DNA of 64,000 bases. Source: Actinomycetes bacterium (GTDB lineage: Bacteria > Actinomycetota > Thermoleophilia > Solirubrobacterales > Solirubrobacteraceae). The first letter of the stretch is position 1. Each line of letters opens with the position of its first letter. A program made the position numbers and the translations under genes. Location: NCBI GenBank assembly GCA_023404805.1, contig JAEYAL010000156.1:6298-70297 (forward strand), in the 5' to 3' direction. The notes under the pieces were generated by a model that searched no databases, had not been told where the DNA came from, and was given only the letters and a program-made list of their open reading frames with translations. Shown here piece after piece: positions 12,222 to 52,878 of this stretch.

Positions 12222-12233
12222 GAGACCTGGCCC

Positions 12234-24198: not shown

Positions 24199-24876
24199 GT
24201 GCCCACGCTCGAACGCGACGGCGACGTCTTCATCCTCAACCTCGGCGACGACGAGAACCGCTTCAACCCGCCGTGGGTCGCAGGGGTCAACGCGGCGCTC
24301 GACGAGGTCGAAGCAGCCGAGGGTCCCAAGGCCCTGGTGACCAAGGCCGACGGCAAGTTCTGGTCGAACGGGCTCGATCTCGCGTGGATCGGGGAGCACC
24401 AGGGCGAGGCCCAGACGTTCATCGACACCGTGCACGCGCTGTTCGCCCGCGTGCTGCTGTTCCCGGCGCCGACCGTCGCCGCGATCCAGGGCCACTGTTT
24501 CGCCGCTGGCGCCATGCTCGCGACCGCTCACGACTTCAAGGTCATGCGCGAGGACCGCGGCTACTGGTGCACGCCCGAGGTCGACATCCACATCCCGTTC
24601 ACCCCGGGGATGGCGTCGCTGCTGCAAGCGCGCCTGCCGAAGGCGACCGCTCACGAGGCGATGACTATGGGCCGCCGCTACGGCGGCAAGGACGCCGTGG
24701 AGTTCGGCATCGTCGACCACTCCGCCAAGGAGCGGCAGCTGCAGGACTGGGCGGTGGCGCGTGCCGCGGCGCTGGTCAACAAGGACGGCCGGACGCTGGC
24801 CCGCATCAAGGAGCGCATGTACGGCGACACCGCAGCCGTGCTGCGCGACCCTGCGGCCAATCAGCTCGGCGCCTAG
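24199..24876 (+). CDS. enoyl-CoA hydratase/isomerase (crotonase) family protein
   Basis: The GTG at 24199 follows AAGGAG (24186-24191). FWSNGLDL and GHCFAAGAMLA motifs are present. The long ORF upstream of this start is shadow. Confidence 0.8.
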   Translation: MPTLERDGDVFILNLGDDENRFNPPWVAGVNAALDEVEAAEGPKALVTKADGKFWSNGLDLAWIGEHQGEAQTFIDTVHALFARVLLFPAPTVAAIQGHCFAAGAMLATAHDFKVMREDRGYWCTPEVDIHIPFTPGMASLLQARLPKATAHEAMTMGRRYGGKDAVEFGIVDHSAKERQLQDWAVARAAALVNKDGRTLARIKERMYGDTAAVLRDPAANQLGA

Positions 24877-24898
24877 CGCACCAGAACGGAGGCCGCTC

Positions 24899-25438
24899 GT
24901 GACCGCTGCGCCTGACCCGAGCTCCGGCGCAGCGCCCCTTGAGATCCGCGTCGCGCGGCTCGAGGACCTCGCTGGGATCGTCGCCATCTACAACGCGTCG
25001 ATCCCGGGTCAGAAGTCGACGGCCGACCTGGAACCCGTCACGGTCGAGTCGCGGATGGCGTGGTTCGTCATGCATGCGCCCGACCACCGCCCGATCTGGG
25101 TCGCCGACCGCGGCGGCCAGGTCGTCGGGTGGCTGAGCTTCAGCGACTACTACGGGCGCCCGGCCTATCGGACGACCGTGGAGGTCGGCGTCTACGTGGC
25201 GCCGGAGGCGCAGGGGCAGGGCGTCGCGCGGGCGCTGGTCGCGCATGCGATCGACGCCGCGCCGGGCCTCAGCGTCCGCACGCTGCTGTGGATCACCTTC
25301 GCGGTGAACGAGGCCAGCCTGCTGCTGGCCGAGTCGGTCGGCTTCACGCGCTGGGGCCTGCTGCCGAAGGTGACCGAGCTGTCCGGCGTGCGCCGCGACA
25401 TCGCGATCCTCGGCCTGGAGCTCGCCGACCCAGACTGA
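24899..25438 (+). CDS. GNAT N-acetyltransferase (phosphinothricin acetyltransferase-like)
   Basis: The GTG at 24899 follows GGAGG. IRVARLEDLAGIVAIYN and YVAPEAQGQGVARAL form the acetyl-CoA pocket motif. Confidence 0.8.
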   Translation: MTAAPDPSSGAAPLEIRVARLEDLAGIVAIYNASIPGQKSTADLEPVTVESRMAWFVMHAPDHRPIWVADRGGQVVGWLSFSDYYGRPAYRTTVEVGVYVAPEAQGQGVARALVAHAIDAAPGLSVRTLLWITFAVNEASLLLAESVGFTRWGLLPKVTELSGVRRDIAILGLELADPD

Positions 25439-27446: not shown

Positions 27447-27530
27447 GCCGCGCGCGGTCGCGCGGCAGGGGCTCCGCCTGGCGCCCGCTTGGCACCGCCG
27501 GCCGCCAGCCTGGCGACGTACGATGGGGCG

Positions 27531-28709
27531 GTGAAGGTCTCACGGCGTTCGGCCGTTCCCCCGTTTGCCGTCATGGAGGTGCTCGCCGCAGTCGGCGAGC
27601 GCCAGGACGCTGGCCTCGACGTCTTCTCGCTCTGCGCTGGCGAGCCTGGCGGGGGCGCGCCAGCTGATGTGCGCGCGCTGGCGGCCGAGCTGCTCACCTC
27701 GGGCGCAGCGCTCGGCTACACGGCGGCGCTTGGCGTCCCAGCCCTGCGGCAGTCGCTCGCGCAGCACTACGAGCGCTGGTACGGCCTCAGCGTCGACCCG
27801 GCGCAGGTGGCGATCACGACGGGGTCGTCGGGCGCGTTCGTCCTCGCGTTCCTCGCGGCGTTCGAGCCCGGCGACCGCGTGGCGCTCGCCCGCCCGGGGT
27901 ACCCGGCCTACCGCAACATCCTCGCCTCGCTGGGGTGCGAGGTCGTCGACATCCCCTGCGGCGCGGACACGCGGTACCAGCCGACGCCCGCGCTGCTGGA
28001 AGCCGCTGTCGCGGACGGCGGCCCGCTGGCCGGGCTCATCCTCGCTTCGCCGGCGAACCCGACCGGCACGATGGTCGACCGCGACGAGCTCGCGGCGCTC
28101 GTGGGCTGGTGCGACGCCTCCGGCACACGGCTCGTGAGCGACGAGATCTACCACGGCATCACCTACGGCGAGGACTCCGCGACCTGCGCGTGGGAGCACG
28201 GCTCGTCGGCGATCGTCGTGTCGTCGTTCTCCAAGTACTGGGGGATGACCGGTTGGCGCCTGGGATGGGCGCTGCTGCCGGAGGACCTCGTCGCGCCCGT
28301 CGACGCGCTCGCTGGGAATTTGGCGCTCTGCCCGCCGGCGCTGGCGCAGCATGCGGCCGTCGCGGCGTTCACGCCCGCCTCGTACGCCGAGGCCGAGGCC
28401 GCGGTGGCGAGCTACCGGGAGCACCGCGCGCTCGTGCTCGGGCGGCTGCCGCAGCTCGGCTGGGGCGCGACCGCGCCCGCTGACGGCGCCTTCTACGTCT
28501 ACGCCGACATCGCCGCGCAGCTGGCCGCCACCGGGTCTGCCGACTCGGTCGCGTGGTGCCAGCGGCTGCTGGATGAGACCGGCGTGGCGCTCACGCCCGG
28601 CACCGATTTCGATGCCGTCGGCGGAGCGCACTGGGCGCGGCTGTCGTTCGCGGCCGACCGCGCCGTGATCGAGCAGGGGCTAGACCGGCTCGCGGCCTGG
28701 CGGCGGTAA
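27531..28709 (+). CDS. pyridoxal-phosphate-dependent aminotransferase, class I/II
   Basis: ASPANPTG and the SFSKYWGMTGWRLGW PLP-lysine motif are present. A GTG start at 27531 is proposed. The ORF track starts at 27489. Confidence 0.85.
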   Translation: MKVSRRSAVPPFAVMEVLAAVGERQDAGLDVFSLCAGEPGGGAPADVRALAAELLTSGAALGYTAALGVPALRQSLAQHYERWYGLSVDPAQVAITTGSSGAFVLAFLAAFEPGDRVALARPGYPAYRNILASLGCEVVDIPCGADTRYQPTPALLEAAVADGGPLAGLILASPANPTGTMVDRDELAALVGWCDASGTRLVSDEIYHGITYGEDSATCAWEHGSSAIVVSSFSKYWGMTGWRLGWALLPEDLVAPVDALAGNLALCPPALAQHAAVAAFTPASYAEAEAAVASYREHRALVLGRLPQLGWGATAPADGAFYVYADIAAQLAATGSADSVAWCQRLLDETGVALTPGTDFDAVGGAHWARLSFAADRAVIEQGLDRLAAWRR

Positions 28710-33247: not shown

Positions 33248-34408
33248 TCAGCGGCTCACGATCGCCGTCGCCATGCGGCGGACGGTCTCGCGCAGCAGGG
33301 CGGGGCTCGTCGCGAAATTGAGGCGGACGTGGCCGGCGCCCGCGTCCGGGTCGTAGTTGCTGCCTGCCGCGAGCGCCACGTCGCCCTGCGTGAGGAGGAA
33401 GTCGGCCGCCTCGCCCGGCAGCGCATAGGCCCGCAGGTCGAGCCACGCGAGGTAGGTGGCCTGAGGCGGCGACCAGCGCGCAGCCGGGAGATGCTCGGCG
33501 AGGAGCAGGCCCAGCTCGTCGCGGTTGGCCGCCAGCTGCGCGAGCACCGCGTCCAGCCAGTCGTCGCCGCTGGTGAAGGCCGCCTCGGACGCGGTCACGC
33601 CGAGGAGGCCTGCGTGGGCGCCGATCGCTGGCAAGCCCCGGACGACGGCGTCGGCCTCGGGTGAGGCCGTCACGATCAGCGCCGCCTTGAGCCCCGCGAG
33701 GTTGAACGCCTTCGACGCCGAGGTGAGGACCACGCCACGCCGCCGGGCCGCGTCGGACACCTCATGCCAGGCGACGTGCCGGGCGCCCGGCAACACGAGC
33801 GGCGCATGGATCTCGTCGCTCAGCACCCACGCCTCGTGGAAGTCCGCGAGCTCGGCGACCGCCTCGAGCTCGGCGCGCGGGAGCACGCGGCCCGTCGGAT
33901 TGTGGGGACTTGCAAGCACGATCACACGAGCGCCCGCGCGCAGACGCGCGTCGAGCGCGGTGAGGTCGAGCGAGCCGCTGGCCAGGAGCGGAACGGCCAC
34001 CGGGCGCAGCCCGATCGCGGTGGGCGCGCTCCAGAACGGGGGGTAGGCGGGGCTGGCGAACACCACTTCGCCGCCCGGCCCGGCGAGGGAACGGGCCAGC
34101 TCCGTGAGCGCCACCATCACGTCAGGCGCCAGCGCCATGCGCGCCGGGTCCGGCGCCCAGTCCAGTCGCCGCTGTGCGAAGCGGGCGAACGCGTCAAAGA
34201 GCGAAGCGGGGGCCCTGAGCGGATAACCGAAGTCGTGTCGCTCGACCGCCGTTCTCAGCACTCCGGTCACGGCCTCTGCCACCGGGAAGTCCATCTCGGC
34301 GACCGTGGAGGCGAGGACGTGCGGCGAGTGCTGGCTCCACTTCTCGGAGCGGCGCGCGGCGAGCTCGGAGAGCGGCGCCACAGTGAGGTCGATAGTGCGC
34401 GCAGACAC
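33248..34408 (-). CDS. PLP-dependent C-S lyase / aminotransferase, MalY-PatB type
   Basis: The GTG at 34408 gives VSARTIDL.... EKWSQH...VAEMDFP, SPHNPTGRV and the SASKAFNLAGLK PLP-lysine motif are present. Confidence 0.8.
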   Translation of the reverse strand: MSARTIDLTVAPLSELAARRSEKWSQHSPHVLASTVAEMDFPVAEAVTGVLRTAVERHDFGYPLRAPASLFDAFARFAQRRLDWAPDPARMALAPDVMVALTELARSLAGPGGEVVFASPAYPPFWSAPTAIGLRPVAVPLLASGSLDLTALDARLRAGARVIVLASPHNPTGRVLPRAELEAVAELADFHEAWVLSDEIHAPLVLPGARHVAWHEVSDAARRRGVVLTSASKAFNLAGLKAALIVTASPEADAVVRGLPAIGAHAGLLGVTASEAAFTSGDDWLDAVLAQLAANRDELGLLLAEHLPAARWSPPQATYLAWLDLRAYALPGEAADFLLTQGDVALAAGSNYDPDAGAGHVRLNFATSPALLRETVRRMATAIVSR

Positions 34409-34672: not shown

Positions 34673-36166
34673 ATGCCCACACCGGATCTCCTCCTTCGCG
34701 TCTCCGACCACGCCCGGCGCGCTCCGAGCCGCCCAGCGCTCTTCTTCCGCGGTGCCTGGACAACGTACGCGGACCTCGCGGCCGCAACGTCGCGGGCGGC
34801 CGACGCCCTCTTCCGGAGCGGCCTGCGCCGCGACGAGCAGCTCGTGCTCCTGGCCCCCAAGTCGCCGGACGCGGTGGCGCTGCTGCTAGCGGCGTGGGAC
34901 GCCGGGTATCAGGTGCTCGTGCCGTCCCCCGCGCTCGGAGAGCAGGCGCTCGCAGCGCTTGCCGAGCACACCGGGGCCGGCGCGATCGCCCGGCTCGGTG
35001 ACGGCGGCCTCCTCGCGCTCGACGTCGAGCATCTCGGCCAATCGGCTGCTGGCCACGACGGGCCGCCCGCGTGGAACGCGGACCTCCTGCTCACCACGTC
35101 TGGGAGCACGGGCGTCCCGAAGGTCGTCCCGATCGACCGCCGCGGCGCTGATCTGTTCTTCGCCTGGGCCGCTGCCGAAGCAGGGATCGGGGCGGATGCG
35201 CGCGTGGTCAGCTACGCGCCGCTCAACTTCGACGTGTCGCTGCTCGACGTCTGGGCAACCCTGTCGCGCGGCGGCGCGGCCATCTTGGTGGACGCGGAGG
35301 CGGCCACCGATGGCGCCGCGCTTGCCGACGTGCTGACCGTGACCGGGGCGACGGTCGCCCAGGCCGTGCCGCTCGCCTTCCGGCTGATCGCCGGCCACGC
35401 GCAAGCGCCGCTGCTCGACCTCGAGCGCATCCTGCTCACCGGAGACGTCACGCCGCCCGACCTCGCCGCTCAGCTTTCGGGGATCGCCCCGCGCGCCCGG
35501 ATCCACAACGTCTACGGCTCCACCGAGACGAACGACTCGACCTGGCACGAAGTATCAGCCGCGGAGCTCGCCAGCGGACAACCGCTCGCGATCGGGCGTC
35601 CGCTGACCGGCGCAGACGCGCGGCTCGTGGACCTCGACGGCCAGCTGGTCGACGGCGCCGGGGAGGGGGAGCTGTGGACGTCGACCCCGTTCCAGGCACG
35701 GGGCTACCTCGACCGGGCTGCGACGGAGGCCGCGTTCATCCCCGCGGCGCTCGGCACGGGCCGCACCTTCTACCGGACCGGCGACCTCGCGACCCGCGCT
35801 GACGACGGGTTGCTCCGCCTGGCCGGCCGCCTCGACCACCAGGTCAAGGTCAGCGGCGTCCGGACCAACCTCGCCGCCGTCGAGGCCGTGCTCCGCGACG
35901 CCGACGGCGTCGCCGATGCCGTCGTCGTCGCCCTGCCCGACGACGTCGCCGGACACCGGCTCCACGCCGTCGTCCAGCGGCGGCCGGACGCAGCGGTCAA
36001 CAGCCTTCTCCTGCGGAGCCACGCGGCGCCGCGCCTTCCTCGCACCGCAATCCCGCGTGCGTACTCCATCGCCGACGAACCGCTTCCGCGCACCGCTACG
36101 GGAAAAGTCGACCGGCAGGCGGTCACGCGCGCCATCACCAGCACCCAGAGCCATGTCACGACTTAG
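34673..36166 (+). CDS. stand-alone amino-acid adenylation enzyme (ANL superfamily, NRPS A-domain / DltA-like)
   Basis: The core motifs occur in order: LLLTTSGSTGVPKVV (A3), FDVS (A4), NVYGSTET (A5), GELW (A6), YRTGDL (A7), GRLDHQVKVSGVR (A8) and PRTATGKVDR (A10). Confidence 0.9.
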   Translation: MPTPDLLLRVSDHARRAPSRPALFFRGAWTTYADLAAATSRAADALFRSGLRRDEQLVLLAPKSPDAVALLLAAWDAGYQVLVPSPALGEQALAALAEHTGAGAIARLGDGGLLALDVEHLGQSAAGHDGPPAWNADLLLTTSGSTGVPKVVPIDRRGADLFFAWAAAEAGIGADARVVSYAPLNFDVSLLDVWATLSRGGAAILVDAEAATDGAALADVLTVTGATVAQAVPLAFRLIAGHAQAPLLDLERILLTGDVTPPDLAAQLSGIAPRARIHNVYGSTETNDSTWHEVSAAELASGQPLAIGRPLTGADARLVDLDGQLVDGAGEGELWTSTPFQARGYLDRAATEAAFIPAALGTGRTFYRTGDLATRADDGLLRLAGRLDHQVKVSGVRTNLAAVEAVLRDADGVADAVVVALPDDVAGHRLHAVVQRRPDAAVNSLLLRSHAAPRLPRTAIPRAYSIADEPLPRTATGKVDRQAVTRAITSTQSHVTT

Positions 36167-36407
36167 CGCGATCAAGGACTTGATCGTCACGAACTTCGCC
36201 CCCGACATCGTCGCGGACGACCTGCCCGACGACTACGAGCTGCTCGCCAACGGCGTCGTCGACAGCCTGGGCGTGGTCAAGCTCGTCGGCTTGCTCGAGC
36301 AGCGCTTCGCCCTCGACCTCGACATCGCCGACCTGACGCCGGACGCGTTCCGCTCGGCCCAAGCGATCGACAGCTTCATCGACGTCCTCGCGCCAGCGGC
36401 CGCCTGA
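36153..36407 (+). CDS. acyl/peptidyl carrier protein
   Basis: The ATG at 36153 overlaps the A-enzyme gene by 14 nt. The 84-aa protein has GVVDSLGVVKLVGLLE, the phosphopantetheine Ser in a DSL motif. Confidence 0.8.
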   Translation: MSRLSAIKDLIVTNFAPDIVADDLPDDYELLANGVVDSLGVVKLVGLLEQRFALDLDIADLTPDAFRSAQAIDSFIDVLAPAAA

Positions 36408-36515
36408 CACCCGCCCGGGCCCGCAGACCACCCCGAACACCACCACCCCGCCCGCTTCACGCACCAACCGCGCTTCGGCGCATTCACCAACCGCAACACG
36501 AGCGTTACCGACACC

Positions 36516-36890
36516 ATGATCGTACGGACGAAACACAGCACCCACGGAGTGGACTGGGGCAACGGGCGGAGCTTCCGGCTCCTCGTCGACCAGGACGGAT
36601 TGGGATTCACCCTCGCCCACACGCACGTGTCGGCGGGAACCGAGTCCAAGCTGCAGTACCGCCGCCACCTCGAGGCGTGCTACTGCATCGACGGGCGCGG
36701 AGAGATCGTCACCGAGGACGGCGTCGCACATCCGATCGAGCCGGGAGTCCTGTACGCGCTCGACGCGCACGATGCGCACACGCTGCGGGCCAGCCCAGAG
36801 GGCGATCTCGAGCTGATCAGCGTCTTCAATCCTCCGCTCACCGGCCAGGAGCGCCACGAGCTCTCCGCCGACGGCTACTCCCAGTACTGA
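36516..36890 (+). CDS. EctC-type cupin (solitary L-ectoine synthase homolog)
   Basis: MIVR..., W.N.RSFRLL..DG.GF, AGTES, HLEACYCIDGRGEI, PIEPGVLYALDAHDAHTLRA and VFNPPLTGQERH run collinear with canonical EctC over the full 124 aa. Confidence 0.85.
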   Translation: MIVRTKHSTHGVDWGNGRSFRLLVDQDGLGFTLAHTHVSAGTESKLQYRRHLEACYCIDGRGEIVTEDGVAHPIEPGVLYALDAHDAHTLRASPEGDLELISVFNPPLTGQERHELSADGYSQY

Positions 36891-36905
36891 AGGGCCCGCG
36901 GGACC

Positions 36906-38132
36906 ATGACCCTCACCCGACCTCTTGCCGCCGCGCCCGTCGAGCCCACGCTCGACGGGGCGGCGGCCCCGCCGCCGCTCACTGAGCTCGCGGCCTGGGC
37001 GCAGCGCCTCGGCGAAGTCGGCGAGCGGCGGCGGCCGCACGTCGGCGCAGACGATGCCGCCGGACGCTTCCCGGCGCAGGCCTTTGCGGAGGTCGCGGCG
37101 ACGGGTCTGTTCGCGCTGCCCTTCACGGATGACCGGCGCCGGTCCGACACGTCGATCCCGGCGCTGCTCGCGGCGATCGAGGAGCTCGCCTACACGAGCG
37201 ACGACGCCGGGCTGGCGTTCGCGGTCGCGACACAGCTGGCCAGCGCGATCATCCCGCTGGCGCGCTTCGGCGCGCCTGCCCTGCGTGAGGAGCTCGCCGG
37301 CGCGCTCGCTGACGGGACGCTCGTGGGTGCGCACGCGATCACCGAGCCTGGCGCCGGGTCCGACACGTCGGCGATCACGACAGTGGCGCGCCCCGATGGC
37401 GACGGCCATCTCCTCGTCTCGGGGGAGAAGGCGTTCGTCTCCAACGGCCCTGTCGCCGACCTGATCGTGGTCTACGCGCAGGTCGGCGAGCCCGGCGCGT
37501 CGGGTGGCCTCACCGCGCTGGCCGTCGATGCGGACGCACCTGGCGTGAAGCCGGGCGCCGCGCTCAGCACGCTCGGCCTCCGCACGAGCCCGCTGGGCAC
37601 GCTGAGCCTCGACGGGGTTCGCGTTCCGCGCGGCCGCGTGGTCGGCCAAGTCGGCGCAGGGCCGTGGCTACTGTCGCACGTGATGGCCCGTGAGATCCTC
37701 TTCATCGCGGCCGGCCACGTCGGCTTGCTGCGCCGCCGCTACGAGCGGCTGGTAGACCGGGCACGGACGCGGCACCAGGGCGGCGTGCCGATCGGCAGCC
37801 ATCAGGCGGTCGCCCACGCCGTCGCCGACGTGAAGCTCTCGTTGGACACCGTGCGCCTCTGGCTCGATCACGCCGCCACGGTGCTGGTGTCAGGCGCCGA
37901 TGCGAGCGCGGAGATCGCGTCGCTCAAGATCGTCGCCTCGGAGGCTGCCGTGAGCTCGGCGCGGACCGCGGTGCAGGTGTTCGGCGGCGACGGCTTCCTC
38001 ACCGGTACCGAGATCGAGCGCGGGTTGCGCGACGCCGCCGCGTCGACGATCTACTCGGGTACGAACGAGATCCAGCGCAACAAGATCGCGGCGCTCGCCG
38101 GGATCACGACACCAGCAAGGGGTGCATGGTGA
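36906..38132 (+). CDS. acyl-CoA dehydrogenase-fold flavoenzyme (possibly acting on a carrier-protein-bound substrate)
   Basis: GAHAITEPGAGSD, GEKAFVSNGPVAD, QVFGGDGF and IYSGTNEIQRN are present. The canonical YEG catalytic Glu is replaced by Ser. Confidence 0.85.
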   Translation: MTLTRPLAAAPVEPTLDGAAAPPPLTELAAWAQRLGEVGERRRPHVGADDAAGRFPAQAFAEVAATGLFALPFTDDRRRSDTSIPALLAAIEELAYTSDDAGLAFAVATQLASAIIPLARFGAPALREELAGALADGTLVGAHAITEPGAGSDTSAITTVARPDGDGHLLVSGEKAFVSNGPVADLIVVYAQVGEPGASGGLTALAVDADAPGVKPGAALSTLGLRTSPLGTLSLDGVRVPRGRVVGQVGAGPWLLSHVMAREILFIAAGHVGLLRRRYERLVDRARTRHQGGVPIGSHQAVAHAVADVKLSLDTVRLWLDHAATVLVSGADASAEIASLKIVASEAAVSSARTAVQVFGGDGFLTGTEIERGLRDAAASTIYSGTNEIQRNKIAALAGITTPARGAW

Positions 38133-38809
38133 CCCGTTCGTCCACGTCCGGTCCGCGATCGGCGCAGGTGCCCGCGAGGTACCTCGCCGCGACCGACCAC
38201 CTCGACTTCCGCCACCCGGCGGTGGCGGCCTTTGTCGAACGCGAAACCGCCGACGCCGCCGACGAGCGCGAGGCGGCCGTGCGGCTTTACTACGCCGTGC
38301 GCGACGGGCTCGACTACGACGTCTTCGGGCAGGACCTGTCGTCCGGCGGGGTGCGCGCCAGCGCGATCCTCGAGCGCGGGCAGGGGTTCTGCCTCCACAA
38401 GTCGATCCTCTACGCCGCCGCGGTGCGCGCGGTCGGGGTGCCAAGCCGGCTCAAGGTGTCGGAGGTGCGGAACCACCTCAGCTCGCCGCGGCTGCGCACG
38501 CTCGTCGGGGGCGACCTCTTCGTGCACTGGCTCACCGAAGTCCACCTCGGGGGCCGCTGGGTCAAGGCGACCCCGGTGTTCAACAAGCTGCTGTGCCGCC
38601 TGTACGGCATCGAGCCGCTCGAGTTCGACGGCGTGCACGACGCATCGGCGCACCCGTTCAAGGACGGCGCCGAGATGCGGTTCCTCACCGACCACGGCAC
38701 GTACGCCGATCTCGATTACGGCCACCTCATCGGCGTGATGCGGCAGCGGCACCCGCGGATGTTCGAACTTGGCCTGTGCACCCCGCGAAGCGTGGCCGTG
38801 GCGGCATGA
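38126..38809 (+). CDS. transglutaminase-like cysteine-protease-fold protein
   Basis: GQGFCLHKSILYAAAVRAVGVPSRL is the nucleophile Cys motif and HWLTEVHLGGRWV is the His motif. The start overlaps the ACAD stop (ATGGTGA). Confidence 0.7.
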   Translation: MVTRSSTSGPRSAQVPARYLAATDHLDFRHPAVAAFVERETADAADEREAAVRLYYAVRDGLDYDVFGQDLSSGGVRASAILERGQGFCLHKSILYAAAVRAVGVPSRLKVSEVRNHLSSPRLRTLVGGDLFVHWLTEVHLGGRWVKATPVFNKLLCRLYGIEPLEFDGVHDASAHPFKDGAEMRFLTDHGTYADLDYGHLIGVMRQRHPRMFELGLCTPRSVAVAA

Positions 38810-39468
38810 CCGCGCGTGCCGCACCCGAGCCGGCGGAGGGCGAGGCGCCGCTGACGCTTGATGTGTTCTTCGACTACGTGTGCCCGTACTGCCTGATCGT
38901 GGAGGACGCGGTCGAGCAGGTGGCCGAGCGCCGGCAGCTCGCCGTCCGCTGGCTGCCGTTCGAGCTGCGGCCGTATCCGAGCGCCACGCTGCGCCCGGAA
39001 GATCCGTACCTCCCGGCGGTCTGGCGCGACAGCGTGTATCCACGAGCCGCCGCCGCCGCGGGCGTCCCGATCTCGTTGCCGACCACGTCGCCGCAGCCTT
39101 GGTCGCACGCCGCGTTCGAGGGCCGGATCCACGCGGCCAGCCACGGCGTGGAGCGCGCGTGGGACCGCGCGGTGCTGCGGGCGTTCTTCCAGGAGGACCG
39201 CGACATCGGCGACCTCGCCGTGCTCGCCGCGATCGGGGAGGCGGTCGGACTCGATCCGGCGCAGGTGCGCGAGGCGCTCCAGGAGCGCCGCTACGAAGGA
39301 GCGCACCAGGCTGCCCTCCGCGAGGGCCGCGCCGCCCACATCTCGGCGGTGCCGACGCTGCGGCTCGGGCGCCACTCGTTCGCAGGGGCGCCCGACGAGG
39401 CCCGCCTCGATCATTTCGTCGGGCTCGTGCTCGACGAACGCTCCGCGAGCGCGGGGCCCGCGGCATGA
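38806..39468 (+). CDS. DsbA-family thioredoxin-fold protein (FrnE / 2-hydroxychromene-2-carboxylate isomerase-like)
   Basis: The ATG at 38806 overlaps the upstream stop (ATGA). LDVFFDYVCPYCLI carries the CPYC motif, and ISAVPTL is near the C-terminus. Confidence 0.75.
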   Translation: MTARAAPEPAEGEAPLTLDVFFDYVCPYCLIVEDAVEQVAERRQLAVRWLPFELRPYPSATLRPEDPYLPAVWRDSVYPRAAAAAGVPISLPTTSPQPWSHAAFEGRIHAASHGVERAWDRAVLRAFFQEDRDIGDLAVLAAIGEAVGLDPAQVREALQERRYEGAHQAALREGRAAHISAVPTLRLGRHSFAGAPDEARLDHFVGLVLDERSASAGPAA

Positions 39469-39989
39469 GCGCGTCGCCCGGCATCGATGACGTCGCCCTG
39501 CAGGCGCTCGTCGCCCAGGCGGTCGACCTTTCGACCGCCGAGGTGGCTCGGGGCGGCATCCCGTTCGCGGCGCTGGTGGTCGACCCGCTCAGCGGCGAGG
39601 TGCTCGGCGAAGGCGTCAACCGGGTTGCCGAGCAGCACGACGCGCTCGCGCACGCGGAGATCGTCGCCTTGCAGGACGCCGCCCGGCGCCGGGGCGCCTA
39701 CGCCCTGCCCGGCTCGCTGCTGATCGCCTCCGGCGAGCCCTGCGGCCTGTGCTATCACGCGGCGCTGCAGTTCCGGGTCGGCCACGTCGTCTACGCGGCC
39801 AGCGCCGATGACGCGGCGCGCTACGGCTTCGACTACCGCGGCAGTTACAGCCTGTTCCGGTCGGCGCCCCGCCAGTGGTGGCCGGGCGGTGTCCGCGCGG
39901 TCGCCGTCGACGGCGCGCTGGCGCCGTTCGACCTGTTCGCAAACCACGACGCCGCTCGTCTAGAGCGCCAGGAGAAGAATCCAAGATGA
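39465..39989 (+). CDS. CDA-fold zinc deaminase (nucleoside/guanine/tRNA-adenosine deaminase-like)
   Basis: The ATG at 39465 overlaps the upstream stop (ATGA). HAEIVALQ and GEPCGLCYHA are the zinc-ligand motifs. Confidence 0.75.
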   Translation: MSASPGIDDVALQALVAQAVDLSTAEVARGGIPFAALVVDPLSGEVLGEGVNRVAEQHDALAHAEIVALQDAARRRGAYALPGSLLIASGEPCGLCYHAALQFRVGHVVYAASADDAARYGFDYRGSYSLFRSAPRQWWPGGVRAVAVDGALAPFDLFANHDAARLERQEKNPR

Positions 39990-40789
39990 CGAACGGCCTT
40001 CGCACGCGGAACGACGGGTGGGACGCACGGTTCCGGCTCGGCGTGATCGTCCCGCACGCCGATGTCGGCCCCGAGGCCGAGCTGCAGGCGATGGCACCGC
40101 CTGACGTGTCGATCCACGCGGGCCGCGTGTACTTCGGCGCGATGCGCGCCGGGGGCAAGATGGACCCGAAGATCCCGCACGACCCGGTGCTGGCGTTCGT
40201 GGCGCCGGGCGCCATCGACGAGACGCTGGAGCTGCTCGCGGCGGCGCCGCTCGACGCGATCGGGCTCGCGTTCACGAGTTCGGCCTACAAGCTCGGCCCG
40301 GCCGGAGAGGACGACCTCGTCGACCGGCTCGCCGAGCGCGCCCGCGGTATCCCGCTGCTCTCTGGCGGCCGTGCTGCGGCGGAAGGGCTGCGGTCGCTCG
40401 GCGTGCACCGCTTGGCGCTGATCCACCCGCCGTGGTTCGACGACGCGCTCGACGAGCTCGGCGCCCGCTACTTCGAGGCTCAGGGGTTTGAGGTGGTGCA
40501 CCACGCGCCGGCCGCCATTCCCAGCGACCAGTCGCTCATCACGGCCGACGCGGTGTTCGAGCATGTGCGCGACGTCGCCCGCGACGCCGACGGCGTGTTC
40601 ATCGCGGGCAACGGCTTCCGCGCCGTCGGCGCGATCGCCCGGCTGGAGCACGCGCTCGGGATCCCGGTGCTCTCGGCCAACCAGGCGCTGCTCTGGCGGG
40701 CGCTGGCGGGCCACGTCTCCGGCCGCGGCGCGTCCCGGACGGTGCACGGCTTCGGCCGGCTGTTCGACGCTGAGGCGTCGGCCTTCTGA
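39986..40789 (+). CDS. Asp/Glu/hydantoin racemase superfamily protein (maleate isomerase / arylmalonate decarboxylase-like), cysteine-free
   Basis: The ATG at 39986 overlaps the upstream stop (ATGA). LGVIVPHAD..., LAFTSSAY, LIHPPW, VFIAGNGFRAV and IPVLSANQALLW run collinear with maleate isomerases. The 267-aa protein contains no Cys. Confidence 0.65.
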   Translation: MTNGLRTRNDGWDARFRLGVIVPHADVGPEAELQAMAPPDVSIHAGRVYFGAMRAGGKMDPKIPHDPVLAFVAPGAIDETLELLAAAPLDAIGLAFTSSAYKLGPAGEDDLVDRLAERARGIPLLSGGRAAAEGLRSLGVHRLALIHPPWFDDALDELGARYFEAQGFEVVHHAPAAIPSDQSLITADAVFEHVRDVARDADGVFIAGNGFRAVGAIARLEHALGIPVLSANQALLWRALAGHVSGRGASRTVHGFGRLFDAEASAF

Positions 40790-40905: not shown

Positions 40906-42174
40906 TCAAGCGCCCGTCACGCGCACCGAGATCTCACGCGAGGCCAGGCGCGCGAACCAGCGGTCGCGCACGTTGCGCTCCAGGTGCGGCTGTCCCGTCT
41001 GGCTCAGGTCTTCGGCCAGCCGCCGGTCGTTCCCGGTCGAATCCAGGCGCCAGCGGGTGAGGGCATCTTGGAAGCGCTGGGCGCACGTATCGTCCGGGCC
41101 CTGCGGGCGGTGCAACGCAAGCCGGCTCACACTTGAGCAGGTACGCGGCGCGCGGGAGACTGCTCCGATCTTCTCGAGCGCCGCGAGCCCAGCCTGGATC
41201 GTCTTGCGGTTGTCGGCTTCGGGGTCGAGCTGGAGCCGCGGAGAGACGTCGCGCGTGAGCGCAGCGACGGACACGTCGACGCTGCCCGTCTGCCCGCCGG
41301 CCTGCTCGGCGAGCACGAGCCAGATCTGCGTGCTGCGCACCACGCGGCGCATCTGCGGCCGCGAGTACTTGTCGCCGCAGAACAGCAGCGCCGCGATCTC
41401 CGCCTCGCCGAGCAGCAGCGGCTGCCCTCGCCGGGACTCGGCCGGTAGCGCGCTGGCGGGGACGCCACCGCGCGGGCGCAGGCAGTCGCTGACCGTCGAC
41501 CGGCCGACGCGCGCTGCCAGCGCGGCCGGAGGGGCGCGGAAGATCGGGTCCGGGGCGCCAGGCGCCGGATCGGCGAACTCGGCCCGGAGCCGATCGCTGG
41601 CTGCCAGGCCCCGCCAGCCCCGCGCGCCGAAGCCGTGGTCGAACAGCCGGATACGCGCATCGGTGAGCAGCCGCTGAAGCTGGGTGCCGCCCGGGTCCTC
41701 CGGCGAGATGCCGTCGTAGGCGAGCACCCCTGAGCGCAGCTGCGCCGGTGACGGCGCGGGCGCGCGCGGCAGCGAGAGCTCGCGCCCTTGCCGCGCGAGG
41801 GCGCCGATGCCGATGAGCGTGTCGAGGGCCTCGTCGTAGGCGGGGACGTGCGACTCGTGTGAACGCAGCACGCGGCCGTAGCGTTCGCGCACATCGGGCA
41901 TCTCGCCGGGGAGCTGAGCGTGCACGCCGCCCGCCCGGGCGACGATCAGCGCGTGGAGCAGCGCGACCGCCAACGCGTGGTTGACCGGCACGCTGCGCCC
42001 GAGCGCGAGCGCGAACACGTCGAACGGCGCGACGAGCACCGGCCACGCGCTCCCTGGGTCGGCGGCCGGCGGCGCGCCGCGCCGCGCGTCGACCAGCCCC
42101 GCGGGCTCGTAGTCGAGCTCGTCGGCGGCCAGATAGCCGCGCCACGCGAACTCCTCTCGGACCAGTGTGCGCAT
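40906..42174 (-). CDS. hypothetical protein (ORFan, 422 aa)
   Basis: The internal ATG at 42174 gives MRTLVREEFAWRGYL.... The composition is protein-like (F, Y, W, I, D and E all present), unlike the Arg/Ala/Pro-rich alternative frames. I recognise no motif. Confidence 0.5.
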   Translation of the reverse strand: MRTLVREEFAWRGYLAADELDYEPAGLVDARRGAPPAADPGSAWPVLVAPFDVFALALGRSVPVNHALAVALLHALIVARAGGVHAQLPGEMPDVRERYGRVLRSHESHVPAYDEALDTLIGIGALARQGRELSLPRAPAPSPAQLRSGVLAYDGISPEDPGGTQLQRLLTDARIRLFDHGFGARGWRGLAASDRLRAEFADPAPGAPDPIFRAPPAALAARVGRSTVSDCLRPRGGVPASALPAESRRGQPLLLGEAEIAALLFCGDKYSRPQMRRVVRSTQIWLVLAEQAGGQTGSVDVSVAALTRDVSPRLQLDPEADNRKTIQAGLAALEKIGAVSRAPRTCSSVSRLALHRPQGPDDTCAQRFQDALTRWRLDSTGNDRRLAEDLSQTGQPHLERNVRDRWFARLASREISVRVTGA

Positions 42175-42215
42175 TCGAGCTCCCCCAGCTCCGCAGTGGT
42201 GCAGCCGGCCGGCCG

Positions 42216-42839
42216 TCAGCCGCGCCCGACGAGTTCGAGCGCAAGCGCGGTGGGCACGCCGCCGTTGATGTTCGCCACGTCCTGCGGGCACGCCGAGACG
42301 ACGACGAGCAGGTCGTCGAGGGCCTGCAAAGTCACGCTGGCTCCCGGCGCGGTGTCGCTGGGCAGCCAGGTCAGCACGCCATCGACCGCCACCGGGATGC
42401 GCATGAAGAGGTTGACGGGCTGCGGCGCGACGGCGGGCACCGGCGCGCCCGCGGCGCGCAGCGCCTGTGCCAGGTTCTCGACGCACGAGGCATGGCCGGG
42501 CGCAGCGCCGAGCTGGGCGTAGCGGACGGGATCACAAGCCGGGATGAGCATGTCGTGGGCGCCCGGCGAGTCGTCGGCGACGAGCTCGAGCAGCGGCCGC
42601 CGCCGCGTGGAATAGAACCGCTCGCCGACCGCCGGAAACAACCGGTCGGTCCGCGCCCGAGTGTGCCCGGCGCTCACATGCTCGTCGTGCCCGGGCTCCA
42701 CGAAGGCGAAGAGGTCGCCGACCTGGCCGCCCTCGACGTCGACCACGCGGAAGGCATCGCCGGCGCGCACGCGCACGGCCCGCGCCGTGCGCGCGGGGAT
42801 CGGCACGACCGCCGGCCGGCTCGTCGGGCGCGTGCTCAC
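42216..42839 (-). CDS. DUF1989 (urea-carboxylase-associated family) protein
   Basis: The GTG at 42839 overlaps the upstream stop (GTGA). VVDVEGGQVGDLFAF, GAHDMLIPACD, PVNLFM and VVVSACPQD match my recollection of DUF1989. Confidence 0.65.
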   Translation of the reverse strand: MSTRPTSRPAVVPIPARTARAVRVRAGDAFRVVDVEGGQVGDLFAFVEPGHDEHVSAGHTRARTDRLFPAVGERFYSTRRRPLLELVADDSPGAHDMLIPACDPVRYAQLGAAPGHASCVENLAQALRAAGAPVPAVAPQPVNLFMRIPVAVDGVLTWLPSDTAPGASVTLQALDDLLVVVSACPQDVANINGGVPTALALELVGRG

Positions 42840-44662
42840 CGGGCTTCGACCGGCGCCCACTCGCCGCCGTCCCGCTTCCAGCCGTCGTACCCCGTATCGA
42901 GGTGCGCCACGTCGCGGTAGCCGAGCTCCCGCAGCGACTTGGCTGCCAGCGCCGAACGCCAGCCGCCCGCGCAGTAGACCACCGTGCGCTGTGCCGGATC
43001 GAGGTAGTCGCGGTGGTACGGCGACCGCGGGTCGGCCCAGAACTCGACGAACCCGCGCGGCACATGCCGCGCCTGCGGGATCGCGCCGTCGCGGACCCGC
43101 TCGCGCTCGTCGCGCACGTCGATCACGAGCACGTCGCCAGCCGCCAGCTCCGCCGCCAGATCCGGCGTCGACAACGCGGGGATCTCGGCGCGGGCCGCGT
43201 CCACGAGACCGCGCACGCCGTGCTCAGACACCCGGGGACGCTCGCGGTGCTCACGCTCGTAGAGCCGCACGACCGCGCGCACCGCCGCGTTGACGGAGTT
43301 GAACACCGGCACGCCGCCACGCCGCAAGATCCGCGCCGGCTCGGTGTCGTCGTACCACGTGTGCACGACCACTGGGACCGGCCCCGCGGCGGCCTGCACG
43401 ATCGCGTGCGCCGCCTCGAGCTCATCGGCGACGAAGTCCTCGGACTGCGCCTTGTAGCCGCCGAACATGCCGCTGAACACGACGGCGTCGACCTCGCCGG
43501 ACTCTGCGACCACGCGGATCGCGGCCGCATAATCGCTGAGCTCGAAGTGCGACCCGCCCGTGATATCGACCGGGTTGCGGCGCGCGGAGGCGCCCGCCGT
43601 CGCCTCGACCAGCGCGGCGTCGACGGCGTCGGAGAGCCGAGGCACCTCGAGCCCGTGGTCGAGGACCGCGCCTGTCCCGAGCACCGCCTGACCGCCGCCG
43701 TCGGCGACCACGCCGACGCGCGGCCCCGCCGGCGTGGCGGTCGCGCGGAGCGTCTCGGCCGCCTCGATCAGATCGGCTGGCGTCGACACGTGCAGGATGC
43801 CAGCGGCGCGAGCCGCCGAGCGCAGCTCGAGCTGGGAAGCGAGCACGGATCCGGTGTGGGCGTGGGCGGCACGGGTCGTCGCCACACCGTCCGGCGGGGT
43901 GAGGAACACGACGGGTTTGCCTGCCGCCGCGGCGTAGCCAGCCGCGTCGATGAGCGCGGGCAGGTCGCGCACCTCCTCGAGGTATGCGCCGATCACATGC
44001 GTCGACGGGTCGTCGGCGAGCGCGCGGAGCAGCTCTGCGGCGGTCACGTCGGCCTGGTTGCCGAACGAAACGAGCCGCGAGAACCCGAGGTCGGAGCGGC
44101 GTCCGAGGGTGACGAGCTCTGTGATCACCCCGCCGCTCTGCGAGATCACGCCCACGTGGCCGCCGCGTGGGTCGTCGAGCCAGGTCATGGCGTCAAGCTG
44201 GCTGTCGTCGACTCGGATGCCGTTGCAGTTCGGGCCGATCAACAGCGCGCCGGCGTCGCGCACCTTCTCCGCGATCCGCGCCTCGAGCTCAGCGCCGAGC
44301 GGGCCCGACTCGCGGAACCCGACCGTGATCACGACGATCGCCTTCGCGCCCGCCGCCAGGGCGGCGTCGACGGTCTCCTCGACGCTGGCCTGCGGCACGA
44401 CCACGATCACGAGGTCCGGCGCCTCGGGCAGCTCGGCGAGGCTGCGGAAGGCTGGCTGGCCCAGGATCTCGCCGCCGCTGCGCGTGACGAGCCGGACGGT
44501 GCGCCGCCCCGCCCCCTGCAGCAGGTTCCGGGCCACGAGGTGGCCCCACTTCGTCGGGTTCGCCGATGCGCCGACGAGCGCGACCACGCGAGGGTCGAAC
44601 AGCGCGTCCCAGTCCCGTTGCGGCGTGGGCGGCGCGGGGGCCGGGGTCTGCGAAAGGGTCAT
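42836..44662 (-). CDS. ADP-forming acyl-CoA synthetase alpha-type (CoA-binding plus CoA-ligase domains) fused to a C-terminal rhodanese domain
   Basis: The internal ATG is at 44662. VALVGASANPTKWG is the CoA-binding motif. GPNCNGI and AAHAHTGSV (phosphohistidine-type motif) are present. The C-terminal ~110 aa has DVLVIDVRDERE...VVYCAGGWRS, a rhodanese active-site loop. Confidence 0.75.
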   Translation of the reverse strand: MTLSQTPAPAPPTPQRDWDALFDPRVVALVGASANPTKWGHLVARNLLQGAGRRTVRLVTRSGGEILGQPAFRSLAELPEAPDLVIVVVPQASVEETVDAALAAGAKAIVVITVGFRESGPLGAELEARIAEKVRDAGALLIGPNCNGIRVDDSQLDAMTWLDDPRGGHVGVISQSGGVITELVTLGRRSDLGFSRLVSFGNQADVTAAELLRALADDPSTHVIGAYLEEVRDLPALIDAAGYAAAAGKPVVFLTPPDGVATTRAAHAHTGSVLASQLELRSAARAAGILHVSTPADLIEAAETLRATATPAGPRVGVVADGGGQAVLGTGAVLDHGLEVPRLSDAVDAALVEATAGASARRNPVDITGGSHFELSDYAAAIRVVAESGEVDAVVFSGMFGGYKAQSEDFVADELEAAHAIVQAAAGPVPVVVHTWYDDTEPARILRRGGVPVFNSVNAAVRAVVRLYEREHRERPRVSEHGVRGLVDAARAEIPALSTPDLAAELAAGDVLVIDVRDERERVRDGAIPQARHVPRGFVEFWADPRSPYHRDYLDPAQRTVVYCAGGWRSALAAKSLRELGYRDVAHLDTGYDGWKRDGGEWAPVEAR

Positions 44663-44691
44663 CGTCGTCCTCCGTGGGCGGATGTGTGGTG

Positions 44692-45894
44692 CTAGAGCCG
44701 GACGAGCCCGTGCGGACGCGGCGTGAGCCGCTCCGCGCCGTCGCCGGTGATCACATAGATGTCTTCGATCTGGTGGCCGCCGAGGCCGCGCACGTAGTAG
44801 GGCGTCTCGAAGCAGACGACCATCCCCGGCTCGAGCGGCCGCAGCTCGGTCGGTGCGAGGAACGGCCCTTGCTCGTCGAGACCGAGGCCGGCGGCGTGGC
44901 CGACGTGGCCGCGCGTATACGTCGGAAGGCCCGCGTCGCGGACGGCGGCCTGGGTCGCGTAGAACACCTCGCTCGCGGGCGTCCCCGCTCGCAGCAGTGG
45001 AACGCCCGCCGCGTGGCCGGCCGCGAGCGCCTCGAGGATCCGCTCCGACCACGGGTGGGGCTCGCCGATCGCGTAGGAGCGCCCGGCGTCGCTGCCGTAG
45101 CCGTGGAGCTCTGCGCCGTAGTCCACCCACAGGGTCTGCCCGTCCTCGATCCGCCGTCCGTCGACCTGCGTCGCGGGCGCCACGTCGCCGCCAGCGGTGA
45201 CGTCGGCCCGCAGCGCGGTGAGGCCTGCGAACTCAGGCGTCTGAAGCGCGGCGCCGTGCACCGCCGCGGCGTACCGCGTCCGTAGCTCCTGCACCGTGCG
45301 CCCGCGCGGGTCCACGCCGAGCACGGCATCCAGGCCGGCGTCGGCCACGCGCGTCGCGCGTCGCAGCAGGTCGATTTCAGCGGGGTGCTTGACGGCGCGC
45401 AGGTCGTAGAAGGCGCCGCTGGCGTCCACGAGCTCGACCTCCGGCGCGGCGCCGGCGAGCGCTGACGCCTCTGCGGCGGTCAGCGCGTCCAGCTCGACGC
45501 CGATCCGGCCTCGCGAGAGGCCGTGGCGCCGCAGCGCCGCCGCTACGACGTCGGCGCTCACGGCGAGGTCGAGCTGGACCGGCTTGGGCCGCACTGCGGT
45601 GCGGCCGGCCTGCAGCGCTTCGAGGTCGTCGATCTCGATCCACGTCGGCACCTCGAACACCTCGGTGCCGTCGGCGCGCGTCTGGGCGGCAGCGCGCGCC
45701 GCCTCCCATGCGCCGACGACGAGGGTGCGCTCACCGCTCGGTTCGAGGACGGCTGCGCCGCCGCTCACTCCGGCGTGCCACGGCCGGAAGCCCGTGAGGT
45801 ACTGCACGTTGTCGAGCGTGAGCGCGAGGAGCCCGTCGAGCGACTCGCGCTCGAGGACCGCTGCAGCTCGGGCCGGATCGAGGAACGACGTCAC
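44692..45894 (-). CDS. M24-family metallohydrolase with a creatinase/prolidase-type N-domain (Xaa-Pro peptidase / creatinase / ectoine hydrolase-like)
   Basis: The GTG at 45894 overlaps the upstream stop (GTGA). KHPAEIDLLRRA is present. Metal-ligand regions are WVDYGAELHGYGSDAGRSY, GHVGHAAG, VCFETP and HQIEDIY. Confidence 0.8.
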   Translation of the reverse strand: MTSFLDPARAAAVLERESLDGLLALTLDNVQYLTGFRPWHAGVSGGAAVLEPSGERTLVVGAWEAARAAAQTRADGTEVFEVPTWIEIDDLEALQAGRTAVRPKPVQLDLAVSADVVAAALRRHGLSRGRIGVELDALTAAEASALAGAAPEVELVDASGAFYDLRAVKHPAEIDLLRRATRVADAGLDAVLGVDPRGRTVQELRTRYAAAVHGAALQTPEFAGLTALRADVTAGGDVAPATQVDGRRIEDGQTLWVDYGAELHGYGSDAGRSYAIGEPHPWSERILEALAAGHAAGVPLLRAGTPASEVFYATQAAVRDAGLPTYTRGHVGHAAGLGLDEQGPFLAPTELRPLEPGMVVCFETPYYVRGLGGHQIEDIYVITGDGAERLTPRPHGLVRL

Positions 45895-51113: not shown

Positions 51114-51130
51114 GTTTGATGGCGACGATG

Positions 51131-52835: not shown

Positions 52836-52878
52836 CGTGTTCCCCCGAATGTCGCTCGTGCTGGCGCGATGCAGCTGT

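Follow-up and report, generated by a model that had tools for sequence, protein, structure and literature searches.

A predicted SdmE-type glutamine cyclase, annotated as ectoine synthase, in a showdomycin-like operon of a Solirubrobacteraceae bacterium

The antibiotic showdomycin is made by Streptomyces showdoensis ATCC 15227 from the sdm gene cluster (Palmu et al. 2017; Ren et al. 2021; PMC8724604), which was found with AlnA and AlnB as queries (PMC8724604). In the passages of a review that treat this cluster, the cyclase SdmE is proposed to turn L-glutamine into 2-amino-1-pyrroline-5-carboxylate (ADPC) (PMC8724604, citing Ren et al. 2021), after which SdmC activates the SdmE product and loads it onto SdmD, and oxidation and hydrolysis give a pyrrole acid that is ribosylated by SdmA (PMC8724604). 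The same passages hold the later decarboxylation, deamination and oxidation to be non-enzymatic (PMC8724604, citing Ren et al. 2021), and parts of the literature on this pathway describe the pyrrole acid as a maleimide precursor that is readily autoxidised to maleimide imine and maleimide. ADPC formation is also an activity of the ectoine synthase (EctC, EC 4.2.1.108) family: the anthelvencin cluster encodes an EctC homologue, Athv28, that produces ADPC from glutamine in vitro (PMC8627960), and canonical EctC catalyses the same conversion as a side reaction (PMC8627960, PMC4795551). Here we analyse an EctC-type gene (36516..36890, + strand) in a 64,000-nucleotide stretch, hereafter the window, of contig JAEYAL010000156.1 (assembly GCA_023404805.1) from a bacterium of the Solirubrobacteraceae. 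By analogy with the sdm system, its product is with good confidence an SdmE-type enzyme, that is, an EctC-fold, Fe(II)-type cupin that would cyclise L-glutamine to ADPC.

The eight-gene operon and its counterparts in the sdm cluster

Eight closely spaced genes on one strand make up the operon (34673..40789), with the EctC-type gene in third place:

34673..36166, + strand: adenylating (A) enzyme, SdmC counterpart; 497 aa; Pfam AMP-binding and AMP-binding_C
36153..36407, + strand: carrier protein (CP), SdmD counterpart; 84 aa; phosphopantetheine Ser in GVVDSLG
36516..36890, + strand: putative EctC-fold cyclodehydratase, SdmE counterpart; 124 aa; predicted L-glutamine to ADPC
36906..38132, + strand: acyl-CoA dehydrogenase-family (ACAD) flavoprotein; 408 aa; Pfam Acyl-CoA_dh N, M and C
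38126..38809, + strand: transglutaminase (TGase)-like protein of Cys-protease fold; 227 aa; Pfam Transglut_core; predicted releasing thioesterase
38806..39468, + strand: DsbA-family thioredoxin-fold protein; 220 aa; CPYC; Pfam DSBA
39465..39989, + strand: cytidine/deoxycytidylate-deaminase-fold zinc deaminase; 174 aa; Pfam dCMP_cyt_deam_1
39986..40789, + strand: Amdase/Asp-Glu-racemase-superfamily protein; 267 aa; Pfam Amdase; predicted decarboxylase or isomerase

For comparison, the S. showdoensis sdm locus (L092) was retrieved via SdmA (KKZ73237.1 of the LAQS genome). One strand of this locus encodes an Amdase-like protein, a TGase-like protein, an ACAD, a 124-aa Ectoine_synth protein, a CP, an A enzyme and a MarR-family regulator, and the other encodes two small multidrug resistance (SMR) proteins, a deaminase, a DsbA-like protein, SdmA, a HAD protein, an MFS transporter and a second Amdase-like protein. 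All eight window operon proteins match sdm counterparts, with 41-58% identity over 70-100% of their length, and the alignments are near full length for all except the CP (46% identity, 59 of 84 residues aligned). The two EctC-type proteins, both of 124 aa and bearing the same signature residues, align over 124 of 124 residues with 57% identity (E about 1e-45, tblastn in both directions). The gene order A, CP, EctC-type, ACAD, TGase-like, Amdase-like is common to both clusters, as are the deaminase, the DsbA-like protein, the SMR pair and the MarR regulator, and the succession A, CP, EctC-type agrees with the naming SdmC, SdmD, SdmE. The aminopyrrole-carboxylate core (A enzyme, CP, EctC-type protein, ACAD and TGase-like protein) is thus complete and collinear in the window.

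By contrast, the YeiN/AlnA-like C-glycosynthase SdmA, the HAD phosphatase SdmB, the MFS transporter and the second Amdase-like protein of the sdm cluster have no place in the window; S. showdoensis SdmA, SdmB and the MFS protein gave no tblastn match at E<=1e-3 in the whole 64 kb. Since SdmA and SdmB are lacking from the window, a C-nucleoside product is not expected. The clusters differ further in that the window SMR and MarR genes sit 11 kb off, behind an unrelated block. Among other candidate relatives, the iso-maleimycin/lugdunomycin cluster (PMC12022981) was set aside as unrelated, its pathway being of LysW type.

The individual proteins of the operon were compared in the same way. The A enzyme, whose best NCBIfam match is TIGR01733 (amino-acid adenylation domain), is 43% identical to the sdm A enzyme over 491 aa. 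Its specificity-pocket signature, read from columns anchored approximately on GrsA numbering and used for its conservation and not for a substrate call, is shared by 72 of 74 cassettes, those of C-nucleoside type among them, and has an acidic residue at the pocket floor. The resemblance of its first five pocket positions to a glycine code, together with a top PDB match to the Gly-activating LgrA domain, was judged uninformative. The CP gene, whose start overlaps the A-enzyme stop by 14 nt, encodes a protein with weak NCBIfam matches to the AmcB, OlsHI-ACP and DltC carrier proteins and a DSL motif that is invariant in a four-way alignment. In the TGase-like protein (58% identity to the sdm counterpart), GQGFCLHK with the candidate nucleophile Cys is invariant, as are DYVCP[YF]C in the DsbA-like protein (45%) and the HAE and PCxxC zinc motifs in the deaminase (50%). 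The Amdase-like protein is 52% identical to the first sdm Amdase-like protein and 28% identical to the second.

For the ACAD (41% identity to the sdm ACAD), the top NCBIfam models are two L-prolyl-PCP dehydrogenases, RedW with 241.7 bits and PigA with 237.3 bits, neither score reaching the equivalog cut-off. These enzymes belong to the modules that convert prolyl-CP to pyrrolyl-CP (RedM/RedO/RedW, PigI/PigG/PigA, PltF/PltL/PltE), which share with the window operon a stand-alone A enzyme, a small CP and a dehydrogenase of the ACAD family by which a five-membered N-heterocycle is aromatised while tethered, the last being a prediction for the window. The window operon differs from these modules in that its ACAD scores far under the equivalog cut-offs (242 versus 650 bits), its predicted substrate is already an amidine, so that one two-electron step would be enough, and release is predicted to be carried out by the TGase-like hydrolase and not by transfer to a downstream assembly line. 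The operon also departs from the anthelvencin system. Athv28 is likewise an EctC-type enzyme within a secondary-metabolite cluster, but there ADPC is built unchanged into a pyrrolamide by non-ribosomal peptide synthetase-type enzymes and an ACAD/TGase-like aromatisation module is lacking.

The EctC-type protein and its clade

The translation of 36516..36890 is the 124-aa protein quoted in the preliminary description of this DNA, and its GC content at third codon positions (0.88) is usual for real genes in the window (GC 71.9%). The protein matched Pfam PF06339 Ectoine_synth (E=1.1e-35, residues 5-116) and scored 139.2 bits against the NCBIfam 'ectoine synthase' subfamily model PRK13290 (cut-off 128), which makes it a member of the EctC family by that model. 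The nearest solved structures are those of Paenibacillus lautus EctC (PlEctC; 5onn/5ono/5onm; E about 4e-29), with which it shares 45-49% identity; identity to Sphingopyxis alaskensis EctC (SaEctC; 5bxx/5by5; E=1.3e-21 for 5bxx) is 40%. The AlphaFold model (mean pLDDT 93) superimposed on the EctC structures with a TM score of 0.83 and root mean square deviations of 1.1-1.3 Å, revealing the same cupin fold.

The protein had been described as collinear with ectoine synthase from MIVR to the NPPLTGxExH motif, and with E53, Y80 and H88 at the iron-ligand positions; both points were borne out by alignment. E53/Y80/H88 correspond residue by residue to Glu-57/Tyr-84/His-92 of PlEctC and to Glu57/Tyr85/His93 of SaEctC, the numbering given there for S. 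alaskensis being the correct one (PMC5924519). The Glu/Tyr/His triad, named as the EctC iron ligands in PMC6344544 and PMC5924519, is kept in the 124-aa protein and is invariant across its clade. As judged from these alignments and the predicted fold, 36516..36890 encodes an EctC-fold, metal-dependent cupin with an intact metal site.

That no ectoine genes lie nearby also held for the window ORFs tested. Among 37 ORFs scanned, which took in every size-appropriate EctA, EctB and EctD candidate, there was no EctA-type acetyltransferase, class-III aminotransferase (EctB) or EctD-type dioxygenase by Pfam or NCBIfam. The sole GNAT protein among them (24761..25438, + strand) resembles arsinothricin/phosphinothricin-resistance acetyltransferases (ArsN1a, 97 bits, below cut-off). 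Neither Rfam nor promoter and terminator scans gave a match within the operon or around it, the 108-nt gap upstream of the EctC-type gene included.

To define how the protein departs from ectoine synthase, PlEctC was aligned with its 120 nearest relatives in the databases, which are 59-95% identical to it and almost all 124-125 aa long; identity and nearness refer here to the window protein. Ser-23, Arg-25, Thr-40, Tyr-52 and Phe-106 (PlEctC numbering) are invariant in this alignment, together with the metal triad. The clade is set apart by a three-residue G-N-G insertion directly after the equivalent of Trp-21 (WG[NSG]G), by Ala, Cys or Thr at the carboxylate-binding position (Asn-38 in PlEctC, His-38 in SaEctC), by an invariant Cys (C55) where EctC has Val-59, by Ser in place of the conserved EctC Cys-104 and by a conserved S-x-Y tail at the C-terminus. 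Position 38 is of note in that Asn-38 of PlEctC (PMC6344544), or the His of SaEctC, contacts the substrate carboxylate. In the window protein the signature reads W14-G-N-G17, A34, C55, S102 and S122-x-Y124. Its core (WG[NSG]G, a small residue at 34 and Cys55) is found in 120 of 120 closest homologues, in 80 of 80 genome loci and in SdmE but not in canonical-type representatives; the non-WGNG proteins among 70 full-length representatives of the EctC family at 50% identity mostly have His or Asn at 38 and Val or Asn at 59. By these sequence criteria the WGNG proteins are a separate clade of the EctC family, within which a rough neighbour-joining tree groups the window protein among members from the same type of cassette. 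The clade is labelled 'ectoine synthase' in every source consulted (NCBI, UniRef, IMG).

Compared with the EctC structures, then, the window protein retains the cupin fold, the Glu/Tyr/His triad, the Trp, Ser, Arg, Thr, Tyr and Phe contacts (W, S19, R21, T36, Y48 and F104) and the C-terminal NPPLTGxExH lid motif, and the predicted reaction is of the same type, an intramolecular amide-amine cyclodehydration. It differs in the GNG insertion after the Trp, Ala at 38, Cys for Val-59, Ser for Cys-104 and the SxY tail, as well as in the lack of ectAB partners in the window and its 40-49% identity; the set of contacts to N-gamma-acetyl-diaminobutyrate and ectoine, taken with Cys-104, is incomplete. 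A separate architecture was met among the database proteins, several of which (P0439-P0441, P0446, P0451, P0467 and others) have 240-300 aa and carry two tandem EctC-type domains, an arrangement not met in the ectoine literature examined.

Distribution of the cassette and the remaining window genes

The preliminary description had suggested a neighbourhood analysis of this group. A pattern scan with one genome per species yielded at least 575 stretches encoding relatives, of which 80 loci were kept. In 68 of these 80, genes for both an A enzyme and an ACAD are found no more than 10 kb from the EctC-type gene, on the same strand in all but one, and 62 of those loci have a TGase-like gene as well. 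The label 'solitary' or 'orphan' given to the window gene therefore does not apply; it is a fixed member of a conserved A-CP-EctC-type-ACAD cassette. In the related loci that carry this cassette there is no ectA-, ectB- or ectD-like gene beside the clade gene, and no acyltransferase or diaminobutyrate-forming enzyme is conserved with it.

The 12 exceptions comprise five Mesorhizobium loci (L073, L075, L079, L083, L086), four Micrococcaceae loci (L063, L072, L085, L087) and three loci with the A enzyme only. The Mesorhizobium and Micrococcaceae proteins have the full WG[NSG]G/Cys55 signature, and no A enzyme, CP or ACAD gene occurs within 10 kb of theirs; these are the truly solitary members of the clade. 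The Mesorhizobium gene adjoins genes for a LysR regulator, a proline-racemase-family protein and branched-chain amino-acid ABC permeases, and in Micrococcus luteus the clade gene stands alone, near gcvP.

Sorting 83 non-redundant loci by accessory genes revealed several sets. The set found in the window (deaminase, DsbA-like protein and first Amdase type, without SdmA) is present in 13 of the 83, with Vibrio, Grimontia, Modicisalibacter, Chromohalobacter, Ca. Tenderia, Leisingera, Saccharothrix, Actinokineospora, Actinopolyspora and Lentzea as hosts. At least 13 genomes, spread over three classes, carry this set, one of them that of the coral pathogen Vibrio coralliilyticus. A Rhodomicrobium metagenome-assembled genome (L036) with the deaminase and first Amdase type was counted as core-only, no DsbA-like match having passed the length filter. 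In 18 loci (Actinosynnema and 17 other genomes), all without deaminase and DsbA-like genes, genes for a YeiN/AlnA-like C-glycosidase (E=5.5e-72 to 4gij, 2.7e-67 to AlnA), a HAD phosphatase and an MFS transporter accompany the cassette, which matches the gene content reported for the showdomycin cluster. Only S. showdoensis has both accessory sets together. Nine loci have TrpD/TrpA/IGPS-like genes, two to three have UbiD/UbiX/monooxygenase genes, 28 have the core only and 12 have no core. Saccharothrix hoggarensis (L011 and L070) carries one C-glycosidase-type and one window-type locus, each with its own core, which argues that the window-type set is a self-standing pathway and not a fragment of a nucleoside cluster. 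Two full core cassettes with different accessory sets, of C-glycosidase and of deaminase/DsbA type, are also found in Actinokineospora globicatena (L033 and L055).

The V. coralliilyticus cassette (L003/L004), in which the ACAD and TGase-like protein are fused in one 619-aa polypeptide (10415..12274), adjoins an aerobactin-type siderophore cluster and a BCCT transporter gene. In Couchioplanes caeruleus (L090, 6428..15056), genes for TrpD-like, TrpA-like and IGPS-like proteins and for a UbiD decarboxylase are interspersed with those of the core, and the cassette adjoins a type II polyketide synthase and a neocarzinostatin-family apoprotein gene; L031, L064, L067, L077, L078, L084 and L037 are similar. 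The EctC-type protein of this subgroup has Thr at 34 and Cys at 102. It looks as if the aminopyrrole acid is used here like anthranilate. A PRAI (TrpF) gene stands directly beside the sdm cluster (L092, 14153..14812), a neighbour of sdm that PMC13055916 notes too; with the TrpD/IGPS-like variants this hints at a recurring tie of the aminopyrrole acid to phosphoribosyl-anthranilate-type chemistry. Streptomyces luteoverticillatus (L091, 7655..16394) combines a flavin reductase, the core, two SMR genes, a styrene-monooxygenase-like protein, a UbiD decarboxylase and a UbiX-like flavoprotein, a variant seen also in S. pathocidini (L007/L008) and L048, which fits enzymatic decarboxylation and oxygenation of a pyrrole-2-carboxylate-type intermediate. 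Indeed, the UbiD/UbiX sets and the YeiN/AlnA-like C-glycosynthases of the other variants both fit an intermediate of this type.

In the window itself, three further genes have counterparts in the cassettes of other genomes:

52042..52515, - strand: SMR efflux subunit b; start uncertain; 49-65% identical to the second SMR of cassette loci
52515..52835, - strand: SMR efflux subunit a; 106 aa; NCBIfam SugE/Qac SMR models; 70% identical to the V. coralliilyticus cassette SMR, 44-67% to those of other window-type loci
52956..53402, - strand: MarR-family regulator; 48-49% identical to the sdm MarR, 38-53% to cassette-adjacent MarR genes

Because these proteins are 38-70% identical to MarR and SMR proteins embedded in other cassettes, the SMR pair and the MarR gene (52042..53402) are likely members of the cluster displaced by an unrelated block at 40.9-52 kb. 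The 70% identity of SMR a to its Vibrio counterpart exceeds that of any other operon protein. They lie 11 kb downstream of the operon, and an insertion seems to have divided the cluster.

The intervening block (40906..51900, - strand) encodes a 421-aa protein without a family match, a DUF1989 (urea-amidolyase-associated-like) protein, an M24/creatinase-type hydrolase, an SBP_bac_5 peptide ABC transporter, an HTH-cupin regulator and an NDP-forming acyl-CoA synthetase fused to a rhodanese domain, the last an unusual fusion. Upstream, two class I/II pyridoxal phosphate enzymes (33248..34408, - strand, divergent from the operon; and 27489..28709, + strand) weakly match the model of the guanitoxin cyclodehydratase GntC, and the former most resembles PatB C-S lyases (262 bits, below cut-off). 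Neither the block nor either of these two enzymes is conserved with the cassette in the other genomes compared, and the block and the PatB-type gene were not counted with the cluster for this reason. The window also has tRNA genes at 14297..14368 (+ strand) and 53605..53678 (- strand), one of which adjoins the MarR gene.

Predicted pathway, alternatives and meaning

In the proposed pathway, the metal of the EctC-type enzyme would polarise the side-chain amide carbonyl of L-glutamine, the alpha-amino group would attack and water would leave, that is, ectoine-synthase chemistry would act on the amide of L-glutamine in place of N-gamma-acetyl-diaminobutyrate. The product would be the five-membered cyclic amidine ADPC, which the A enzyme is predicted to activate and load onto the 84-aa CP. 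The ACAD would then take two electrons from CP-bound ADPC to give an aromatic 2-aminopyrrole-5-carbonyl thioester, from which the TGase-like hydrolase would free 2-amino-1H-pyrrole-5-carboxylate. The deaminase may remove the exocyclic amidine/imine nitrogen by hydrolysis, either from the aminopyrrole or from a maleimide imine, and the Amdase-like protein may decarboxylate or isomerise the ring acid. The DsbA-like protein may deal with thiol chemistry or serve self-protection against an electrophile, either role being a guess. Together, and with the help of air, these three proteins would turn the acid into a free maleimide-type or aminopyrrole-derived compound, which the SMR pair would export under the control of MarR. 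Such a free product is predicted from the lack of the C-glycosynthase SdmA and the phosphatase SdmB in the window, and the end product is probably a free aminopyrrole or maleimide-type compound, neither ectoine nor showdomycin. The fold, ligands, clade signature, synteny and gene-by-gene match to sdm come from this analysis; the literature on the homologous system supplies glutamine as the starting compound, the sequence in which the steps occur, and the pyrrole acid and its autoxidation.

Several points weigh against this assignment. The PRK13290 score of the 124-aa protein lies above the curated cut-off, and most EctC substrate contacts are retained, such that the protein may have residual or real ectoine-synthase activity. 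Function is transferred at 57% identity and leans on a review summary of Ren et al. 2021, and that review terms the showdomycin pathway 'proposed' and incompletely understood (PMC8724604). The window protein and the window-type clusters are assigned by homology, not biochemistry, and the sequence is compatible with cyclisation either before or after CP loading. Finally, SdmA and SdmB could lie beyond the 64-kb window.

An alternative to a free-glutamine cyclase is that the substrate is tethered, either glutaminyl-S-CP or an N-acylated diamino-acyl-S-CP being cyclised on the CP before oxidation by the ACAD. A thioester-bound substrate was in fact our first reading of the Asn-38-to-Ala change: Ala, Cys or Thr at this carboxylate contact across the clade might be expected if the carboxylate is a thioester, the clade gene always directly follows the CP gene in the cassette, and the acidic residue at the A-pocket floor could suit a glutamine amide as well as an amidinium. 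This reading was demoted by the order of steps in the literature, where passages on the homologous pathway have free L-glutamine cyclised first (PMC8724604) and where Athv28 and canonical EctC cyclise free glutamine (PMC8627960, PMC4795551), and by the full-signature Mesorhizobium and Micrococcaceae members, within 10 kb of which neither a CP nor an A enzyme is encoded. Nor does the cassette come with a conserved gene for an acyltransferase or for making a diamino acid, and we regard on-carrier cyclisation as unlikely. These data also bear on the preliminary description, which had proposed from the gene context a cyclocondensation of an N-acylated diamino acid. The functional tie to the A enzyme, CP and ACAD stands, as does cyclocondensation as the likely reaction; the N-acylated diamino acid finds no support, free L-glutamine being the published substrate of the homologous pathway, with loading after cyclisation. 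Nor are EctC-type paralogues without a defined substrate, as had been thought, given that SdmE is proposed to act on L-glutamine in the review passages cited above (PMC8724604) and Athv28 makes ADPC from it (PMC8627960).

A role in catabolism was also considered, whereby the EctC-type enzyme would run in reverse to open a cyclic amidine (ADPC or an ectoine-like solute) for degradation by the other enzymes. EctC has a minor hydrolytic activity (PMC4795551), the best NCBIfam match of the Amdase-like protein is the ectoine-utilisation protein EutA, M24/creatinase-family, SBP_bac_5 and ABC transporter genes lie downstream, and the Mesorhizobium clade member has LysR, proline-racemase-family and amino-acid ABC permease genes as neighbours. 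However, the EutA match reaches 71 bits against a cut-off of 318, the transporter/M24 block is conserved with the cassette in no other genome compared, adenylation onto a CP is typical of biosynthesis, as are SMR exporters and a MarR regulator, and the homologous sdm cluster is a proven antibiotic cluster; we consider catabolism very unlikely. We hold it to be exceedingly improbable that the gene encodes a conventional ectoine synthase and has become separated from an ectAB set elsewhere in the genome. The Pfam and NCBIfam calls, the latter above its curated cut-off, would suit such an enzyme, as would the retained metal triad and most substrate contacts, and a solitary EctC of P. syringae gave ectoine in a Halomonas ectC mutant (PMC5924519). 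Yet identity to PlEctC and SaEctC is only 45-49% and 40%, the clade has its insertion and its substitutions at 38, 59 and 104 (PlEctC numbering), and no ect gene was present among the scanned window ORFs. Moreover, the gene is fixed across three bacterial classes in a cassette whose other genes have no role in ectoine synthesis, and the operon matches the SdmE cluster gene for gene.

The SdmE-type assignment places the window gene in an enzyme type and a core pathway that are already known; it is the glycosidase-free cluster variant that is undescribed in the literature searched. Likewise, no description was found there of the other accessory variants or of the clade-wide 'ectoine synthase' mislabelling. 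At somewhat less than even confidence, we propose further that the window-type cassette is a self-contained, horizontally spread pathway to an undescribed free-base metabolite, maleimide itself or a near relative of aminopyrrole/pyrrolinone type that is electrophilic, in which pathway the deamination and decarboxylation that are taken to be spontaneous in showdomycin formation would be enzyme-catalysed, and that the same core feeds at least two further uncharacterised pathway types (TrpD/TrpA/IGPS-like and UbiD/UbiX/monooxygenase).

For the EctC family, these data indicate that the SdmE-like clade includes hundreds of proteins that NCBI, UniRef and IMG list as 'ectoine synthase' and that exceed the NCBIfam cut-off. 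This clade would mark aminopyrrole/maleimide secondary metabolism and not osmoprotection, and the mislabelling inflates genome-based counts of 'ectoine producers'. It accounts for at least part of the 'solitary EctC' population, the function of which the ectoine field had left open (PMC5924519), and the WGNG insertion, the small residue at the Asn/His-38 position and Cys55 serve as markers that separate SdmE-like proteins from EctC. The showdomycin core cassette is found far outside Streptomyces and is combined there with at least four different sets of accessory genes. Of these, the window-type set has no glycosylation genes, spans about 6 kb plus the exporter, occurs in marine Gamma- and Alphaproteobacteria as well and may allow marine and soil bacteria to make a novel, reactive small metabolite. 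As such, the window-type cluster is less a surprise than a useful correction of annotation and a reasonable lead for genome mining.

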